A stretch of DNA of 10,369 bases from a virus (IMGVR_UViG_2675903352_000018:1-10369); one strand, 5' to 3'; shown: positions 1 through 10,369, counted from the stretch's first letter. Numbers and translations: made by a program. Notes: a model not told the origin generated them from the sequence alone.

Positions 1-495
1 AGTGGTGATCTCCTTGAAATTGTTAGCACAATCAATTAGATCACATCTCACTATGCCTGTCTTGTTTTCTGGGGATTCCTCAGGGGATTTTCCCTCGTTT
101 TGAGGGATGTCCCTCATTTTAGGGGAACCTCCCTCGTTTTGAGGGATGCACCATTCTGAGATGTTTTTATTTGGTCCAAACATGCCGCCTTGCTGCTTGA
201 TAATATTCATTCTGACGAGTTCTAACTTGGCTTCATTGCACCGTTTGACAGGTAACTTTGTAATCTCGCTAAGTTGAGAATCGGTGATTCTGTCCATTGG
301 TTTATTCCACCCATAGGTTTTACGCAGAATGGCAAGCAGCACTTTAAACTGTCGCTTGGTCAGATCTGCGCCTGAATAAGCCTCAATCAGCATATTTGAT
401 AGTCTGGCGTAACCATCATCGAGATCTGCCACATTACGCTCCTGTTCGGCAAAGTTACCTCTGCCGAAGTTGAGTATTTTTGCTGTATTTGTCAT
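1..495 (-). CDS. O: Replication initiator protein O, N-terminal portion (partial; continues beyond window start)
   Basis: Minus-strand frame from ATG at 495..493, preceded by AGGAG, reads MTNTAKILNFGRGNFAEQERNVADLDDGYARLSNMLIEAYSGADLTKRQFKVLLAILRKTYGWNKPMDRITDSQLSEITKLPVKRCNEAKLELVRMNIIKQQGGMFGPNKNISEWCIPQNEG... and stays open to position 1. I recognise this as lambda O from memory. It is absent from the ORF track because it runs off the window edge. Confidence 0.9.
   Translation of the reverse strand, partial: MTNTAKILNFGRGNFAEQERNVADLDDGYARLSNMLIEAYSGADLTKRQFKVLLAILRKTYGWNKPMDRITDSQLSEITKLPVKRCNEAKLELVRMNIIKQQGGMFGPNKNISEWCIPQNEGGSPKMRDIPQNEGKSPEESPENKTGIVRCDLIDCANNFKEITT
71..146. repeat. 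ori-lambda type iterons (four ~17-bp palindromic repeats) inside the O coding region
   Basis: ggggattcctcagggga (71..87), tccctcgttttgaggga (91..107), tccctcattttagggga (110..126), tccctcgttttgaggga (130..146). Lambda ori lies inside O and consists of O-binding iterons of this TCCCTC..GAGGGA form. Confidence 0.85.
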
Positions 496-527
496 AATGA
501 CTCCTGTGGATTGATCCAGTAATTCCC

Positions 528-824
528 TCAGAATTGCATATCAATTTGCTTAGAGTCCCCGGCGGCCACCGGGGATTTTTTCTTTGTGATTTCATCAAGC
601 GCATACTTAAAAGCCCTGCTAATCGGACTGATGTCTGATGCCATTCCGAAAGCACACAAGACCGAAGCAATAAATCTCCAGTCCGTTCTGCTTATCTTCG
701 ATTCATGACAGCCAATCATCTTTGCCAGACCGCGCTGGGTAAGCGTTGACAGGTTGATGAGTAAATCTGTTTCTGCGCGATCAATTTCTCGCTGTGTTAG
801 CTTGCTGTAACTTGCTTGTGCCAT
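528..824 (-). CDS. cII: CII-family transcriptional activator (lambda CII / P22 C1 analogue)
   Basis: 98-aa ORF between cro and O on the same strand. Same length class and architecture as lambda CII, with a conserved C-terminus (..KKSPVAAGDSKQIDMQF here, ..KKRPAATERSEQIQMEF in lambda). Confidence 0.85.
   Translation of the reverse strand: MAQASYSKLTQREIDRAETDLLINLSTLTQRGLAKMIGCHESKISRTDWRFIASVLCAFGMASDISPISRAFKYALDEITKKKSPVAAGDSKQIDMQF
802..815 (+). promoter_or_regulatory. Candidate P_RE -35 region: CII-binding tetrad repeat TTGC-N6-TTGC
   Basis: ttgctgtaacttgc at 802..815, overlapping the start of the cII coding region and oriented toward cI, as for lambda P_RE. No -10 element was mapped confidently. 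Confidence 0.5.
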
Positions 825-887
825 TTGTTAATTTTCCTATATTGATATATAGCGGCACACCCAGTGGATTTGCCGCTGATGTTTGCT

Positions 888-926
888 CACCCGGTTAGAG
901 GTGAAAGGCCAGAACTGTTAAAGAGC
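888..926 (-). promoter_or_regulatory. nutR site (boxA plus boxB hairpin) between cro and cII
   Basis: On the minus strand: boxA GCTCTTTAA (plus coordinates 918..926), then boxB hairpin TCACCTCTAACCGGGTGA (888..905) with loop CTAACC. The same boxA and loop recur at nutL. A further palindrome agcggca..tgccgct (851..877) lies downstream and may be part of tR1. Confidence 0.6.
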
Positions 927-933
927 AATTTAC

Positions 934-1119
934 TTATGCCGCTTGGCGGTAAGCACTTTCTTGATACTTCAGAGCGCCAGCTGTAACGATTTCCAATCGA
1001 TAGGCGTCTTTCTCTGGGATAACTTCTTTCCACTGAGAGACTGCTGCATCGCTAATGCCTAGTGCTTTAGCAACAGCACGCTGGGTTCCGAAGTGGTCAA
1101 TAACATCTTTTTTGTACAT
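934..1119 (-). CDS. cro: Cro repressor (P22 Cro-like)
   Basis: 61-aa ORF divergent from cI, MYKKDVIDHFGTQRAVAKALGISDAAVSQWKEV... with an HTH motif. Matches P22 Cro as I recall it. Confidence 0.9.
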   Translation of the reverse strand: MYKKDVIDHFGTQRAVAKALGISDAAVSQWKEVIPEKDAYRLEIVTAGALKYQESAYRQAA

Positions 1120-1131
1120 AGACTCGCTCCG

Positions 1132-1199
1132 AAATTAAAGAACACTTAAATTATCCACCAAAGGAATCTTAAGCCAAGTTTATTTAAGATGTCTTAACT
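1132..1199. promoter_or_regulatory. O_R operator region with divergent P_R / P_RM
   Basis: 18-bp P22-type operators built from ATTTAAG/CTTAAAT half-sites: attaaagaacacttaaat (1134..1151) next to cro, atttaagatgtcttaact (1182..1199) abutting the cI ATG, and a CTTAAG-centred site between them. A P_R -10 GATAAT lies on the minus strand at 1150..1155. The last operator directly abuts the cI ATG with no room for a Shine-Dalgarno, which suggests a leaderless cI mRNA as in lambda. Confidence 0.7.
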
Positions 1200-1850
1200 A
1201 TGAATACACAACTGATGGGTGAGCGTATTCGCGCTCGCAGAAAAGAACTCAAGATTAGGCAGGCTGCCCTTGGCAAGATGGTTGGCGTGTCTAATGTTGC
1301 TATTTCCCAATGGGAGCGATCTGAAACTGAGCCCAATGGCGAAAACCTATTGGCCTTAGCCAAGGCTTTGCAGTGCTCCCCTGATTACCTGTTGAAAGGA
1401 GAGGATAGTCTTTCAAACATTGCCTATCACAGCAGGCATGATCCAAGAGGTTCGTATCCTCTAATTAGTTGGGTAAGCGCAGGATGTTGGATGGAAGCTG
1501 TAGAGCCATATCATAGGCGTGCAATAGATAACTGGTACGACACAACGGTAGATTGTTCTGAAGACTCTTTTTGGCTCGACGTTAAAGGTGATTCAATGAC
1601 TGCCCCGGCAGGACTGAGTATTCCTGAAGGGATGATTATTCTCGTCGACCCAGAAGTCGAACCACGTAATGGAAAGCTGGTAGTCGCCAAACTTGAAGGA
1701 GAAAACGAGGCGACATTCAAAAAGTTAGTTATTGATGCCGGTAGAAAATTCCTGAAACCACTCAATCCACAATACCCAATGATTGAAATCAATGGGAACT
1801 GTAAAATCATTGGCGTTGTCGTTGATGCCAAGCTAGCAAACCTTCCTTAA
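1200..1850 (+). CDS. cI: CI-type repressor (HTH N-terminal domain plus LexA/S24-like autocleavage domain); P22 C2-like
   Basis: 216 aa. N-terminus MNTQLMGERIRARRKELKIRQAALGKMVGVSNVAISQWERSETEPNG matches P22 C2 as I recall it. The C-terminal domain has the GDSM serine motif (FWLDVKGDSMTAPAG) and a catalytic-lysine region (ATFKKL). Confidence 0.95.
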   Translation: MNTQLMGERIRARRKELKIRQAALGKMVGVSNVAISQWERSETEPNGENLLALAKALQCSPDYLLKGEDSLSNIAYHSRHDPRGSYPLISWVSAGCWMEAVEPYHRRAIDNWYDTTVDCSEDSFWLDVKGDSMTAPAGLSIPEGMIILVDPEVEPRNGKLVVAKLEGENEATFKKLVIDAGRKFLKPLNPQYPMIEINGNCKIIGVVVDAKLANLP

Positions 1851-1872
1851 GGGGCTTTCGCCCCTTTTTTAT
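1851..1872 (+). terminator. Rho-independent terminator after cI
   Basis: ggggc-tttc-gcccc stem-loop followed by TTTTTT immediately after the cI stop. Confidence 0.7.
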
Positions 1873-1938
1873 TTCCCGTTAAAAATCAAAGACAAACTAA
1901 ATTCGCGCCCATAAAATTAAGTTTTCTTCAAAATGCAC

Positions 1939-1967
1939 TTGACCAAAAATTAAGAGATCTTAAATTT
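1939..1967 (+). promoter_or_regulatory. P_L promoter with overlapping O_L operator
   Basis: -35 TTGACC at 1939..1944, about 17 bp spacer, then an A/T-rich -10 (taaatt). An 18-bp palindromic operator aattaagagatcttaaat (1948..1965) overlaps the spacer. A further operator-like site lies near 1913..1934. Confidence 0.6.
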
Positions 1968-2012
1968 AAGCCGTCAGCAGGAGGCTGGAAGCCAAACGGA
2001 ACAGATTGGCAG

Positions 2013-2052
2013 GCTCTTTAACATCGACGAACTCTCAACCTAACCGTTGAGA
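2013..2052 (+). promoter_or_regulatory. nutL site (boxA plus boxB hairpin)
   Basis: boxA gctctttaa (2013..2021). boxB hairpin tctcaac-ctaacc-gttgaga (2033..2052) has the same CUAACC loop as nutR. Sits between pL and N as in lambda. Confidence 0.6.
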
Positions 2053-2162
2053 CCAGAACTTGAGTGGTTTTGGGGATGGCGCGAATTGCAGCTGCAAGAC
2101 AGCGATCGAGAAGATAAGCACCTCGACGCGTCATGCGCCAAAGCCACTTAAAGGAGACCATC

Positions 2163-2468
2163 ATGGTAACCATTGTCTGGAAAGAATCCAAAGGTACGGC
2201 AAAAAGCCGCTACAAAGCTCGCAGAGCAGAACTTATTGCCGAGCGACGCAGTAATGAAGCACTGGCGCGAAAAATTGCGCTAAAGCTCTCTGGTTGCGTC
2301 AGAGCAGACAAAGCAGCATCACTAGGAAGCCTTTGCTGCAAGAAGAAAGAAGAAGTTGTTCGAAAAAATAGAAGTATTTATTACAAGGATTCAAACCCAT
2401 TAGGAAACAAAATACATGCAGTCCAAAAAATAAAATTGTACAGTAAACTACCGTACGGTGCTTATTGA
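2163..2468 (+). CDS. N: N-family transcription antiterminator (phi21-type arginine-rich motif) with a chimeric C-terminus created by the insertion at 2386
   Basis: RBS aaggag (2151..2156) then ATG at 2163. MVTIVWKESKGTAKSRYKARRAELIAERR contains the phi21 N boxB-binding ARM as I recall it. The track's upstream ATG at 2133 lacks an RBS. The last 27 codons lie inside the AT-rich insert. Confidence 0.85.
   Translation: MVTIVWKESKGTAKSRYKARRAELIAERRSNEALARKIALKLSGCVRADKAASLGSLCCKKKEEVVRKNRSIYYKDSNPLGNKIHAVQKIKLYSKLPYGAY
2376..2385. repeat. Left copy of 10-bp direct repeat ATTTATTACA flanking the insert in N
   Basis: Identical 10-mer at 2376..2385 and 2848..2857. Deleting one copy plus the intervening 462 bp restores an uninterrupted N reading frame. 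Confidence 0.8.
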
Positions 2469-2470
2469 GT

Positions 2471-2809
2471 ATGCTTATGGTGAAAAAGACTATTTATGTT
2501 AATCCTGACCGCGGACAAAACAGAAAAGTATCTGATAGAGGTCTTACATCTCGAGACAGGAGGAGAATAGCGAGATGGGAAAAGAGGATAGCATATGCAT
2601 TAAAAAACGGTGTAACACCTGGATTTAATGCTATAGATGACGGTCCTGAATATAAGATTAATGAAGACCCAATGGACAAAGTTGACAAAGCATTAGCAAC
2701 ACCATTTCCTCGCGATGTCGAAAAAATTGAAGATGAAAAATATGAGGATGTAATGCACAGAGTTGTTAATCACGCTCACCAACGAAATCCAAATAAAAAA
2801 TGGTCATAG
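2471..2809 (+). CDS. Hypothetical protein encoded inside the AT-rich insert (moron); no recognisable family
   Basis: ATG at 2471 lies 2 nt after the N stop (tgagtATG), so it is translationally coupled. 112 aa: basic N-terminal half (KVSDRGLTSRDRRRIARWEKR), acidic C-terminal half (EDPMDKVDK...DVEKIEDEKYED). Followed directly by an intrinsic terminator. The alternative start at ATG 2477 is not excluded. Confidence 0.6.
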   Translation: MLMVKKTIYVNPDRGQNRKVSDRGLTSRDRRRIARWEKRIAYALKNGVTPGFNAIDDGPEYKINEDPMDKVDKALATPFPRDVEKIEDEKYEDVMHRVVNHAHQRNPNKKWS

Positions 2810-2829
2810 CCCACTTCGGTGGGTTTTTT
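2810..2829 (+). terminator. Rho-independent terminator at the 3' end of the insert
   Basis: cccac-ttcg-gtggg stem-loop followed by TTTTTT, one nt after the stop of the 2471..2809 ORF. Confidence 0.7.
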
Positions 2830-2847
2830 ATTGGCTGAACTAACCGA

Positions 2848-2934
2848 ATTTATTACAGCAAGCCACGCAGTGAAATGGGTGTGACTTGTGTTGGTCGCCA
2901 GAAAATGAAATTAGGCAGCAAACCACTTATTTGA
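2848..2934 (+). pseudogene. N: Displaced original 3' end of N (right direct-repeat copy plus last ~27 codons)
   Basis: Reads ..IYYSKPRSEMGVTCVGRQKMKLGSKPLI then stop, closely resembling the lambda N C-terminus (..YSKPGERGITCSGRQKIKGKSIPLI). It is in frame with N 2163..2385 once the insert is removed, and has no start codon of its own. Confidence 0.75.
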
Positions 2935-2942
2935 GGTGAGAT

Positions 2943-3413
2943 ATGACAAAATCATGGAGCGTACCTTTTCCTGAATCAGAAACTGAACATGATGGAATGC
3001 CTGTTTTCTGGAGATTCCAGGCGACAGTTGAAGAAGATGGGATAAAAATATTCGCACTTCAATATATAGCTTTTCATCAGACAGAGCATTATGCATGGTT
3101 GGTTCCTGCGCATTGGATTGTTAATTTTAAACCAGCACCAAATCAGTGGTTACAGGAATGGAAACAAAGGAGAAATAGATATGCAATTAAGAAAGTAGCA
3201 AAAAATGCAGAAAGATCTTTTGCATTCCCAACGAAGAAACTTGCCATTGAGAGTTTATTGCGCCGGAAGAAATACCATTTAATGAGAATCAAACAAGATT
3301 TGGCTGTTGTATCAACTCTTGTTGATGGGATGAAGAATATTGATACATCAACACCAGATATTGAATATAACTTTGGGCACAACCAAGAAACAGAAAATTG
3401 GGTATTTTATTAG
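2943..3413 (+). CDS. Hypothetical protein at the N-proximal accessory position (where lambda has ral/sieB)
   Basis: 156-aa ORF with RBS gaggtga 5 nt upstream of the ATG, starting 9 nt after the original N stop. Soluble-looking, Trp-rich N-terminus, basic central segment (KQRRNRYAIKKVAKN..RRKKYHLMRIK). No family recognised. Confidence 0.7.
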   Translation: MTKSWSVPFPESETEHDGMPVFWRFQATVEEDGIKIFALQYIAFHQTEHYAWLVPAHWIVNFKPAPNQWLQEWKQRRNRYAIKKVAKNAERSFAFPTKKLAIESLLRRKKYHLMRIKQDLAVVSTLVDGMKNIDTSTPDIEYNFGHNQETENWVFY

Positions 3414-3427
3414 TACGAGTAAGCACT

Positions 3428-3455
3428 GTGTATTCATTCCAACGAGTGAATACAC
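3428..3455. repeat. Perfect 9-bp inverted repeat with 10-nt spacer in the intergenic region
   Basis: gtgtattca-ttccaacgag-tgaatacac. Could be an RNA hairpin or a protein-binding palindrome. Confidence 0.4.
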
Positions 3456-3517
3456 GGAGCAATGTCGCTCGTAACTAAACAGGAGCCGACTTGTTCTGAT
3501 TATTGGAAATCTTCTTT

Positions 3518-3931: not shown

Positions 3932-4003
3932 GCGCGGCGTTACCGCATACCAATTACGCTTCACTCGAGGCGTTTTTCGTTATGTATAAATAAGGAGCAC
4001 ACC

Positions 4004-4168
4004 ATGCAATATGCCATTGCAGGGTGGCCTGTTGCTGGCTGCCCTTCCAAATCTTTACTTGAACGAATTACCCGTAAATTACGTGACGGATGGAAACGCC
4101 TTATCGACATACTTAATCAGCCAGGAGTCCCGAAAAATGGATCAAACAATTATGGCTATCCAGACTAA
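4004..4168 (+). CDS. cIII: CIII protein (FtsH inhibitor that stabilises CII)
   Basis: RBS taaggag (3991..3997). Translation [54 protein letters not shown] (54 aa) is nearly identical to lambda CIII as recalled. Below the ORF-track length cutoff. Confidence 0.9.
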   Translation: MQYAIAGWPVAGCPSKSLLERITRKLRDGWKRLIDILNQPGVPKNGSNNYGYPD

Positions 4169-8994: not shown

Positions 8995-9052
8995 CCACAG
9001 CCTCACACTCGATGAGGCCTGTTCATTTCTCAAGATATCCAGACCTACCATT

Positions 9053-9072
9053 GCCGCATCAATGCGGCTTTT
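9053..9072 (+). terminator. Terminator-like hairpin upstream of xis
   Basis: gccgca-tcaa-tgcggc stem-loop followed by TTTT. A second hairpin gcctca-cactcga-tgaggc lies at 9000..9018. Confidence 0.4.
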
Positions 9073-9099
9073 CTTGCGTGTAATTGCGGAGACTTTGCG

Positions 9100-9318
9100 A
9101 TGTACTTGACACTTCAGGAGTGGAACGCACGCCAGCGGCGCCCAAGGAGCCTTGAAACAGTTCGTCGATGGGTACGCGAGTGCAGGATATTCCCTCCTCC
9201 GGTTAAGGATGGAAGAGAGTATCTGTTCCACGAATCAGCGGTAAAGGTTGACTTAAATCGACCAGTAACAGGTAGCCTTTTGAAGAGGATCAAAAATGGG
9301 AAGAAGGCGAAGTTATGA
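9100..9318 (+). CDS. xis: Excisionase Xis
   Basis: 72 aa, MYLTLQEWNARQRRPRSLETVRRWVRECRIFPPPVKDGREYLFHESAVKVDLNRPVTG... essentially identical to lambda Xis. Overlaps the int start as in lambda. Confidence 0.92.
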   Translation: MYLTLQEWNARQRRPRSLETVRRWVRECRIFPPPVKDGREYLFHESAVKVDLNRPVTGSLLKRIKNGKKAKL

Positions 9319-10369
9319 GCGCCGGGATTTACCCCCTAACCTTTATATAAGAAACAATGGATATTACTGCTACAGGGACCCAAGGACGGGTAAAGAGTTC
9401 GGATTAGGCAGAGACAGAAGGATAGCAGTTTCAGAGGCTATTCAGGCCAATATTGAGTTGCTATCCGAGAACAGGCGTGAGTCACTGATAGACAGAATTA
9501 AAGGCGCTGACGCAATCACTCTTCATGTGTGGCTTGACCGATATGAAAGAATCCTCACCGAAAGGGGGATCAGGCCGAAAACTCTACTCGACTACGCCAG
9601 TAAAATCAGGGCAATCCGAAGAAAATTGCCGGACAAACCGCTCACTGACATATCAACGAAAGAAGTGGCAGCAATGCTAAACACCTACGTAGCAGAAGGT
9701 AAAGCAGCTTCCGCAAAATTAATCAGGTCAACCCTTGTTGACGTTTTTCGTGAAGCAATAGCCGAGGGGCATGTGGCAACGAATCCGGTAACAGCAACCC
9801 GTACAGCAAAGTCAGAAGTAAGGCGCTCAAGGCTGACAGCTAATGAGTATGTCGAGATTTACCATGCAGCCGAACCTCTCCCTATCTGGCTAAGGCTGGC
9901 GATGGATTTGGCTGTCGTTACAGGGCAGAGAGTGGGCGATTTGTGCAGAATAAAATGGTCAGACATAAACGACAACCATCTTCACATTGAACAGAGTAAA
10001 ACAGGGGCTAAGCTCGCCATTCCGCTAACGCTAACGATTGACGCGCTCAATATCTCATTGGCTGATACACTACAGAAATGCAGGGAGGCCAGCGGCAGTG
10101 AAACTATAATCGCATCAAAGCATCACGATCCGCTTTCCCCGAAAACAGTATCGAAGTATTTTACAAAGGCGAGAAATGCATCTGGACTCTCATTTGATGG
10201 AGACCCGCCAACATTTCATGAACTGCGTAGCCTGTCAGCGAGGCTATACCGGAATCAGATTGGCGATAAGTTTGCTCAACGTCTTCTCGGACATAAATCA
10301 GATTCAATGGCTGCGCGGTATAGGGACAGCCGAGGGAGAGAATGGGACAAAATTGAAATCAACAAATGA
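9296..10369 (+). CDS. int: Tyrosine integrase Int (lambda Int family)
   Basis: 357 aa. N-terminus MGRRRSYERRDLPPNLYIRNNGYYCYRDPRTGKEFGLGRDRR matches the lambda Int arm-binding domain. The C-terminal catalytic region has the HELRSL...LLGH...Y motifs. Stop codon is the last triplet of the window, so attP lies beyond it. Confidence 0.95.
   Translation: MGRRRSYERRDLPPNLYIRNNGYYCYRDPRTGKEFGLGRDRRIAVSEAIQANIELLSENRRESLIDRIKGADAITLHVWLDRYERILTERGIRPKTLLDYASKIRAIRRKLPDKPLTDISTKEVAAMLNTYVAEGKAASAKLIRSTLVDVFREAIAEGHVATNPVTATRTAKSEVRRSRLTANEYVEIYHAAEPLPIWLRLAMDLAVVTGQRVGDLCRIKWSDINDNHLHIEQSKTGAKLAIPLTLTIDALNISLADTLQKCREASGSETIIASKHHDPLSPKTVSKYFTKARNASGLSFDGDPPTFHELRSLSARLYRNQIGDKFAQRLLGHKSDSMAARYRDSRGREWDKIEINK

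Follow-up and report, generated by a model that had tools for sequence, protein, structure and literature searches.

A long-known close relative of the locus analyzed here is the nun gene of phage HK022, which encodes a transcription arrest and lambda exclusion factor. Nun competes with lambda N for the boxB RNA of lambda, which it contacts through its ARM, and its C-terminal segment inserts into the cleft of RNA polymerase, where it prevents translocation (PMC5386594). HK022 itself lacks N and relies on put RNAs; only a 38-codon remnant of N is found 5' of its nun. King and colleagues reportedly described, in 2000, constitutive nun promoters in the repressed prophage. Phage 21, another phage with which the locus has much in common, carries a single uninterrupted N followed by ral, and has no nun.

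The lambdoid phages provide precedents both for genes that appear between the neighbors of a relative and for gene ends that are replaced. Juhala, Hendrix and colleagues are said to have described, in 2000, “morons”, extra lambdoid genes with their own promoter and terminator that lie between genes adjacent in related phages. Phage 21 and the element e14 provide a precedent of the second kind in icd, where the element enters the 3' end of the gene and supplies a replacement 3' end.

We analyzed a 10,369-nucleotide stretch of viral DNA (IMGVR_UViG_2675903352_000018:1-10369, hereafter the window). The locus belongs to a lambdoid prophage, of which it forms the early-left operon; the repressor of this prophage is of the P22-c2 type, its N and nutL are of the phage-21 type, and its integrase is of the HK022 type. 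An earlier note had described, within the 3' end of N, a precise AT-rich cassette bounded by a 10-bp direct repeat and had proposed that the antiterminator was remodelled to take on cargo. We consider it likely that the layout as a whole is best explained otherwise, as a nun exclusion module situated behind N, together with the scar of an illegitimate recombination event.

Organization of the Locus

The features of the region are collected in Table 1.

Table 1. Features of the N–nun region, in window coordinates
Feature	Position	Strand	Description
nutL, phage-21 type	boxA 2013-2021; boxB hairpin 2033-2052	+	boxA GCTCTTTAA; boxB hairpin TCTCAACCTAACCGTTGAGA
Antiterminator gene N, 101 aa	2163..2468	+	PHROG 271 “anti-termination protein N-like”, E=4.6e-31
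Left ATTTATTACA copy	2376..2385	+	codons I72-Y73-Y74 of live N
Candidate nun promoter	2416..2444	+	−35 ATGCAG 2416-2421; −10 TACAGT 2439-2444
nun, HK022 Nun transcription arrest / lambda exclusion factor	2471..2809	+	112 codons from ATG 2471
Intrinsic terminator after nun	2808..2831	+	GCCCAC-UUCG-GUGGGU followed by a T-run
Spacer after terminator	2832..2841	+	contains the proposed illegitimate junction, somewhere within 2834-2848
Displaced N 3' relic, phage-21 type	2842..2934	+	codons 70-99 and stop; 90/93 identical to phage 21
Right ATTTATTACA copy	2848..2857	+	inside the N 3' relic
Downstream gene, 156 aa	2943..3413	+	PHROG 1636; RBS overlaps the relic stop codon
Conserved hairpin-containing segment	3424..3500	+	identified by sequence comparison

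Comparison with related phages and prophages revealed four arrangements. Arrangement A has a single intact N ahead of ral and is seen in phage 21, DE3 and E. coli HCM-26C-1. Arrangement B, represented by E. coli CUVET19-1704, consists of a full N with a variant tail, nun, the terminator and the conserved hairpin, with no relic of N behind nun. Arrangement C, that of the window and its relatives, adds to B a phage-21-type N tail and at least one other gene before the hairpin. In arrangement D (HK022 and HK75), all that remains of the variant N between putL and nun is its final 38 codons, and the hairpin comes after nun; the HK022 remnant begins at the equivalent of window position 2351, and its stop codon is mutated. 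The window thus differs from HK022 in having a complete phage-21-type N before nun and an N 3' relic after it, whereas HK022 has no downstream relic and its conserved hairpin is interrupted by IS903.

N Carries a Variant C Terminus

The upstream part of the region closely follows phage 21. N codons 1–55, the leader and nutL are 98–99% identical to those of phage 21, N residues 1–57 are identical to the phage 21 protein, and boxA and boxB are exact matches to the boxA-L and nutL annotations in the phage 21 record OL657228. No lambda-type boxB was found anywhere in the window when up to three mismatches were allowed. The relationship changes within N: positions 2163–2326 are of phage-21 type (99% identity), whereas identity falls to only 78% over 2327–2385, with codons 56–71 diverging to the same degree at the DNA level. 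This stretch and the following one, 2386–2468, belong to a variant allele (“Nx”).

The earlier observation that the insert opens with a diverged copy of the N 3' end was borne out by alignment, which showed 2386–2468 to be colinear with N. The canonical N C-terminal domain (ending in SKPRSEMGVTCVGRQKIKLGSKPLI) is absent, and the colinear variant KDSNPLGNKIHAVQKIKLYSKLPYGAY, followed by the stop codon, stands in its place. Compared with N of phage 21, N of the 434/lambda type and metagenomic N, the variant tail retains G81, Q88, K89 and S94. The score of the protein against the Pfam N_peptide model is below the cut-off (18.4 versus 27.9 bits).

The variant C terminus is found paired with three RNA-binding heads (ARM types): the phage-21 type in the window, a type beginning MTNREHKK in locus L017, and the lambda type, in hybrid form, in locus L015. 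The same N is present in the plaque-forming phages mEp235, mEpX1 and Kapi1, suggesting that N with the variant tail is a working N. Since the tail is an allelic form present in viable phages, the protein encoded in the window would still be an N. The proposal that N had been remodelled to take on cargo is therefore not tenable: the variant C terminus is a normal allelic form, occurring with three ARM types, and the same tail is also found in an N–nun locus that has no relic.

The Gene Behind N Is nun

The ORF and the terminator-like hairpin claimed for the putative cassette are both present, and its content was correctly described as a gene with a terminator, preceded by a diverged N 3' end. 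The ORF starts 2 nt past the N stop codon; the published start of the Nun protein corresponds to ATG 2477. Its product is identical to Nun of PDB 6ALG (chain N) at 108 of 109 residues (E=2.5e-71), and PHROG 5632, “Nun-like transcription termination factor”, covers residues 1–112 of 112 (E=4.5e-71). The 26-residue ARM peptide of PDB 1HJI aligns to residues 22–47 (E=5.6e-11), and the sole difference from 6ALG (R for S) falls on the N-terminal side of the aligned residues. The C-terminal arrest tail (ending in VVNHAHQRNPNKKWS, with a penultimate Trp) is identical to that of HK022 Nun. At the DNA level, window positions 2351–2826 are 96.6% identical to HK022, HK75 and O276. The cargo is the long-known nun of HK022, and the arrangement has already been annotated in named phages: the GenBank/RefSeq records of mEp235 and mEpX1 list an “antitermination protein N” beside a “transcription termination factor Nun”. 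The cargo therefore cannot be considered novel.

The locus shares with the nun locus of HK022, HK75 and O276, in addition to the Nun protein, the 118 bp upstream of the gene with its annotated promoter; in both cases the pL operon has nun in its first gene region, and the integrase is of the HK022 type. The position next to torS, seen for the identical E. coli FORC_042 prophage, is a further point in common. The candidate nun promoter lies within the C-terminal codons of Nx, in the last 50 bp of N, and is identical in sequence to the −35 and −10 elements annotated for nun of phage O276/HK022 in MH547045. It is weak by consensus, and a consensus promoter scan of the window did not pick it up. 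Judged from its sequence, it may be active in the window.

The near-identity of the two proteins allows the mechanism of HK022 Nun to be extended, by inference, to the Nun of the window. In a lysogen, nun would be transcribed from the constitutive promoter inside N, and the terminator would end this transcript ahead of kil and the recombination genes. The ARM would bind boxB of the lambda nut site, and the tail would become wedged in RNA polymerase, blocking translocation, so that the early genes of an incoming lambda would remain unexpressed. The resident phage would be spared because its own nut boxB is of the phage-21 type and it has no lambda boxB; an exclusion that is specific for lambda and spares other nut types would be consistent with the resident phage-21 boxB. 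After induction, N-modified polymerase coming from pL would read through the nun terminator.

A Displaced N 3' End Lies Past the nun Terminator

The relic that follows the terminator corresponds to nt 208–300 of phage 21 N, the last 30 codons of that gene. In the window it has no start codon, and a stop codon closes the frame just 5' of it. Translation of the relic through read-through or frameshifting from nun was considered and rejected, because the two lie in different frames (nun in 1, the relic in 0) and a stop codon stands just 5' of the relic; only in PA28 do nun and the relic, on either side of the nun stop codon, share a frame, apparently as the result of a 2-nt deletion. The reading frame of the relic is free of indels in mEp235, Kapi1, PA28 and mEpX1. 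The relic is also close to live N alleles, which, together with the indel-free frame, is unexpected for an old neutral scar.

Local alignments place the start of the relic in mEp235, mEpX1, Kapi1 and PA28 within about 10 nt, at N codons 68–72. In the window the junction is not placeable to the base, because positions 2832–2847 give two equally weak alternative alignments, one to the HK022-type spacer and the other to N codons 68–71; the spacer at 2832–2841 has the same length as the post-terminator spacer of HK022, HK75 and locus L009 and is 63% similar to it. The gene behind the relic would have arrived together with it. This gene is 99% identical in PA28 and is absent from HK75 and L009, where nun adjoins the conserved hairpin directly; the hairpin segment likewise lies directly 3' of the nun terminator in HK022, phage 434 and E. 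coli CUVET19-1704. The genes that follow the relic vary between phages.

The 10-bp Repeat Does Not Bound a Cassette

The direct repeat ATTTATTACA was found in the two copies listed in Table 1 and nowhere else in the window, and removal of 2386–2857 (472 bp) does join N in frame, giving a 99-codon phage-21-like protein that ends in IYYSKPRSEMGVTCVGRQKMKLGSKPLI and a stop codon. The repeat does not, however, mark the limits of a precise cassette. DNA linked to nun begins 5' of the left copy, and the left edge depends on the lineage: the switch between allele types falls at about 2327 in the window and at about 2362 in PA28, and the HK022 remnant begins between the two. Such variability among lineages is as expected from homologous exchange within N. 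Moreover, a search of 5,426 complete E. coli genomes did not turn up the allele predicted by precise excision (variant 2348–2385 joined to 2858–2895) in any of them. The best contiguous match to this allele, and the only full-length one, at 87% identity in E. coli S87, was rejected as an ordinary N with another ARM.

The significance of the 10-mer was rejected by simulation, a comparable pair arising in 36% of first-order Markov simulations of 2300–2950, a level not above chance; a repeat finder returned five further direct repeats, likewise short and of comparable quality, within this interval. The two copies are not conserved as a pair. At the corresponding positions PA28 carries the imperfect combination ACTTATTACA (left) and AATTACTACC (right), mEpX1 carries ATTTATTACA (left) and ATTTACTACC (right), HK022 has ATTTATTGCA at the left position, and phage 21 has the single copy ATTTACTACA. 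Read in codons, the repeat is the conserved Ile-Tyr-Tyr of two N alleles, one copy belonging to the live N and the other to the relic. It is neither a target-site duplication nor an insertion boundary, but incidental. A search of Rfam found no known RNA family within 2376–2857 and gave a single match elsewhere in the window, to the cIII thermoregulator (3991–4049).

Distribution and Prior Annotation

Searches of 5,426 complete E. coli genomes detected nun in 221, including many Shiga-toxin-producing strains, and the variant N tail (2386–2470) in 220. The nun-terminator-relic junction is present at a coverage of at least 80% in 182 of the 5,426 genomes, and an uninterrupted phage-21-type N 3' half in 284. 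The uninterrupted N alleles that the earlier note had anticipated in related phages thus exist, in phage 21, in DE3 and in these 284 genomes; the nun insert is absent from phage 21 and from locus L010.

By megablast, the layout of N, nun, terminator and N tail is found at 98–99% identity in mEp235, mEpX1, Kapi1 and PDP110P1; PA28, 06-3462 and a dozen Stx1a-converting phages match it at 92%. The architecture of mEp235, mEpX1, Kapi1, PDP110P1 and the PA28/Stx1a phages is identical to that of the window, the start of the relic included. PA28 differs in having lost the N stop codon and in its degenerate nun terminator, while mEpX1 differs in carrying another allele of the relic and a second relic.

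An identical prophage adjoins torS in E. coli FORC_042, where RefSeq names both N and nun “hypothetical protein”, and further RefSeq E. coli entries among the matches listed give N and nun similarly generic names. A full-text search, outside which the key older papers lie, found no paper on N and nun together or on the N relic.

Origin of the Layout

The variant N 3' end with its nun promoter, nun and the terminator would form one native, co-inherited module behind N. The overlap of the promoter with the N tail and the co-occurrence of tail and nun (220:221) suggest that these elements are inherited as a unit. DNA of the B arrangement would have preceded C, because the diverged N tail must stem from an N that stood in front of nun. 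A single illegitimate crossover, joining a B-type phage just past the nun terminator to a phage-21-type N at about codon 70, would then have generated C, leaving behind a non-coding N 3' relic together with the downstream genes of the partner phage. The starts of the C-type relics, lying within about 10 nt of one another, fit one event followed by spread. Later homologous exchange within N would account for the differing left boundaries seen today; the uneven identity between the window and PA28 (89% for the N 5' part, 95% for nun, 96% for the relic and 99% for the downstream gene) points to exchange of this kind. In our best reading, the layout is ordinary lambdoid mosaicism with a recombination scar and represents no new kind of element. 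The earlier note, in favoring a module swap by recombination with a divergent phage over transposition, had chosen the right class of explanation, namely recombination with another lambdoid phage.

The nun module resembles a moron in its annotated promoter and terminator, in its absence from close relatives, and in the lysogen benefit and prophage expression that would be expected of it. It also shows the change in base composition on one side: the AT-rich step claimed for the unit is present at its left edge, where GC content drops from 0.46 in the N 5' part to 0.37, but not at its right edge, where the flank is equal (0.41 in the relic and 0.36 in the gene at 2943–3413). Unlike a moron, it does not fit neatly between two genes: the promoter falls within coding sequence, at the 3' end of N, and the right edge is marked by a second copy of the N tail. 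Integration of the icd type leads to a similar result, in that the gene stays intact with a diverged substitute 3' end while the original end is displaced downstream, but neither an integrase nor an att site is involved here, and the analogy is limited to the outcome.

Of the competing explanations, the one closest to the earlier note is the capture of a 462–472-bp fragment (variant N tail, nun and terminator) by an intact phage-21-type N at ATTTATTACA, either through short-homology recombination of the Red/RecT type or through Campbell-type integration of a small circle, the direct repeat being created in the process. The perfect 10/10 repeat in the window and in mEp235, the restoration of the N frame by deletion, the Bet/Exo-type recombination genes of the prophage and the abundance of intact phage-21-type alleles all fit such a capture. 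We nevertheless judge it improbable, given that 2327–2375, to the left of the repeat, is already of the nun-linked variant type, that no empty site was found among the 5,426 genomes, that the repeat is conserved at only 7–8 of 10 positions in PA28 and mEpX1, that 10 bp is not beyond chance, and that N–nun exists without the relic. The flanking 10-bp repeat is also the only feature that would favor transposition of a small mobile element, with the repeat as its target-site duplication. Here the sole ORF is nun, there is neither a transposase nor a pair of terminal inverted repeats, the insert opens with 83 bp homologous to the gene it is supposed to interrupt, and the repeat is conserved N coding sequence that is imperfect in relatives. 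With every defining feature absent, a transposable element is refuted for practical purposes, and we attach virtually no credence to it.

A separate question is whether the relic might be retained instead of being a dead scar, serving as a homology arm through which the nun module could enter any phage with a related N or, in some lineages, encoding a small translated N peptide. Its indel-free frame in mEp235, Kapi1, PA28 and mEpX1, the differences between phages in the genes behind it, and the fact that in three Nun lineages the type of the relic matches that of the live N alleles would agree with retention, as would a 45–47-codon ORF over the relic in loci L014 and L021, whose ATG overlaps the stop codon of the nun-like gene (ATGA), and the second, more degraded N-end relic that mEpX1 carries behind another small inserted gene. 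The relic of the window, on the other hand, is closed 5' by a stop and lacks a start codon, the substitutions are too few for a selection test, and ordinary exchange of modules would account equally well for a mosaic edge at the N stop codon. These considerations make retention very improbable in our view, and we favor the scar of a single crossover, although the N 3' relics behind diverged nun homologues, described below, could mean that the scar is much older, recurrent or maintained.

N and Nun as Neighbors in Other Phages

The Nun family is small, comprising 20 clusters at 90% identity, and homologues at 61–67% identity retain the ARM and the C-terminal tail VVNHAHQR..KKW. In loci L017–L020, a diverged nun is preceded by N with the variant tail or by a stub of such an N, and a lambda-type N tail (YKQPGERGVTCSGRQKMKGKSIPLI and stop) is found directly past the nun terminator. 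In Citrobacter braakii locus L014 and in loci L016, L021 and L022, a put-like RNA lies 5' of one or more nun-like genes, and a hybrid N tail (VERKNHRTWYKDANPFGNKIHAVQKSRGKSTPLI and stop) lies 3' of the terminator; L015 has a matching full-length N farther downstream. Relics of three lineages can be distinguished: the phage-21-type tail of the window, the lambda-type tail of L017–L020, and the hybrid tail of the Citrobacter and metagenome loci.

Proteins that combine Nun with other heads also occur next to N. Phage 434 encodes, directly 3' of N, a 289-aa protein with a Nun tail at its end, and ORF43 of Hafnia phage Pocitis76 (88 aa), directly after a phage-21-like N, joins a lambda-N-like ARM to the C-terminal half of Nun. 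A 97-aa Nun paralogue has an N terminus like that of phage 21 N. BLASTP of the N of the window against Nun gave no match, and the link between N and Nun is weak and transitive, passing through this 97-aa paralogue.

In the loci compared, N and Nun-type genes are habitual neighbors, and truncated N tails recur behind nun terminators. These tails may reflect one old junction that has been refreshed, repeated events at the conserved ERKNR..YY, or retention. A further idea would be that Nun-type proteins have been built repeatedly, by joining the N head of a competitor to an arrest tail, and that the N-derived flanks serve as homology arms for movement of the module among the N genes of different phages. 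The N tails behind Nun-like genes in three lineages, the rival-N heads on Nun-like proteins, and the inseparability in E. coli of nun from the variant tail that carries its promoter all point in this direction; we regard the idea as speculative and rather unlikely.

Conclusions

The immediate outcome of this analysis is a correction and an annotation: the two “hypothetical” genes of the E. coli FORC_042 prophage are N and the gene for the lambda exclusion factor Nun. The layout leaves the established mechanisms of N and Nun unchanged, and more work might be worthwhile only on the Nun-like proteins with exchanged heads and on the N-tail relics that recur behind nun. The 38-codon N remnant kept by HK022 supports the derivation of its N-less state from an N–nun ancestor. 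The occurrence of nun in 221 of 5,426 genomes and in Stx1a phages suggests that exclusion of one phage by another through Nun is perhaps commoner than its textbook status as the property of a single phage would imply. The recurrence of N-tail relics behind diverged nun homologues is a small point of evolutionary interest, and the 3' third of N is apparently a recurrent recombination joint in lambdoid phages.

Surroundings of the N relic

In the window, the displaced phage-21-type N 3' end, or N relic, behind the nun terminator is followed by a 156-aa gene whose ribosome-binding site overlaps the relic stop codon. This gene has a 99% identical counterpart in PA28 and no match in Pfam. A conserved hairpin segment, GCACTGTGTATTCATTCCAACGAGTGAATACACGG, was found in every lambdoid locus examined, and is interrupted by IS903 in HK022 and O276. 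Further out, an element matching the lambda cIII thermoregulator lies immediately 5' of a cIII-like ORF, and a 19-bp direct repeat, TCCCTCGTTTTGAGGGATG, corresponds on the opposite strand to the core of the lambda ori iteron (TCCCTCAAAACGAGGGA); the repeats are therefore presumably the replication origin within the O gene. The E. coli FORC_042 prophage is identical to that of the window, and its terminal integrase adjoins a frameshifted torS; torS-torT is the HK022 attachment region. RefSeq names both its N (WP_000256573.1) and its Nun (WP_000930321.1) "hypothetical protein".

Coordinates of features in the window and in comparison loci
Feature	Locus	Positions	Remarks
19-bp direct repeat	window	91-109 and 130-148	copies 39 bp apart
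156-aa gene	window	2943-3413	PHROG 1636
Conserved hairpin segment	window	3424-3460
Conserved hairpin segment	HK022 (L002)	2012-2040
Lambda cIII thermoregulator element	window	3991-4049	Rfam RF01804, 85.5 bits
N-nun region, PA28 and Stx1a phages	L004	1562-2341
Two N 3' relics, mEpX1	L005	2231-2550
FORC_042 prophage features	L011 (NZ_CP025318)	9031-9677 and 16033-18810
289-aa protein, phage 434	L012 (OL657226)	977-1846	immediately 3' of lambda-type N
88-aa ORF, Hafnia phage Pocitis76	L013 (OL512804)	1590-1856	4 nt 3' of phage-21-like N
Tandem Nun-like genes and associated putL-like and N sequences, metagenome and Citrobacter-type loci	L015	2501-3117 and 3617-3940
Tandem Nun-like genes and associated putL-like and N sequences, metagenome and Citrobacter-type loci	L021	2001-2751

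Nun-like proteins in other loci

The first ~32 residues of the Pocitis76 ORF (MDAQARRREKRKAKQEEWKKQNP...) resemble the arginine-rich RNA-binding motif (ARM) of lambda N, while its C-terminal half (...MYRVVNHAHQRNRHKKW) is Nun-like. Its matches include PHROG 5632 (Nun-like) as well as PHROG 271 (N-like), and its sequence therefore looks like that of a Nun-type protein bearing a borrowed N head. The phage 434 protein, labeled "Nun C-terminal peptide-containing protein" by its depositors, ends in the Nun tail NPVNHAHQRNPNKKWS, and the terminator, spacer and hairpin DNA 3' of its gene are the same as in HK022.

Two Nun-like genes stand in tandem in L015 and L021, and in each locus the pair is preceded by sequence resembling putL, the HK022 put RNA site. 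The second encodes a 97-aa protein that joins a phage-21-N-like N-terminus (BLASTP E=3e-4) to a Nun tail. Downstream, L015 retains a full N with the lambda ARM; L021 retains only the last ~35 codons of such an N.

The N 3' end in relatives

In PA28 and the Stx1a phages, the N stop codon has been lost through a 1-nt deletion, so that N extends to 112 aa and runs into the start of nun. The stem of their nun terminator is degenerate, and the N relic shares the nun reading frame, with a TAA stop codon alone between them. Two N 3' relics lie one behind the other in mEpX1, the first with an end of the ...GRQKQRRKSIPAYYD type and the second a more degraded phage-21-type N end (CGTATTTACTTTCGCAGCAAACCACTTATTTGA), separated by a 45-aa ORF similar to Sf6 gene 36. 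The N 3' end seems to be a joint at which small genes have been inserted repeatedly.
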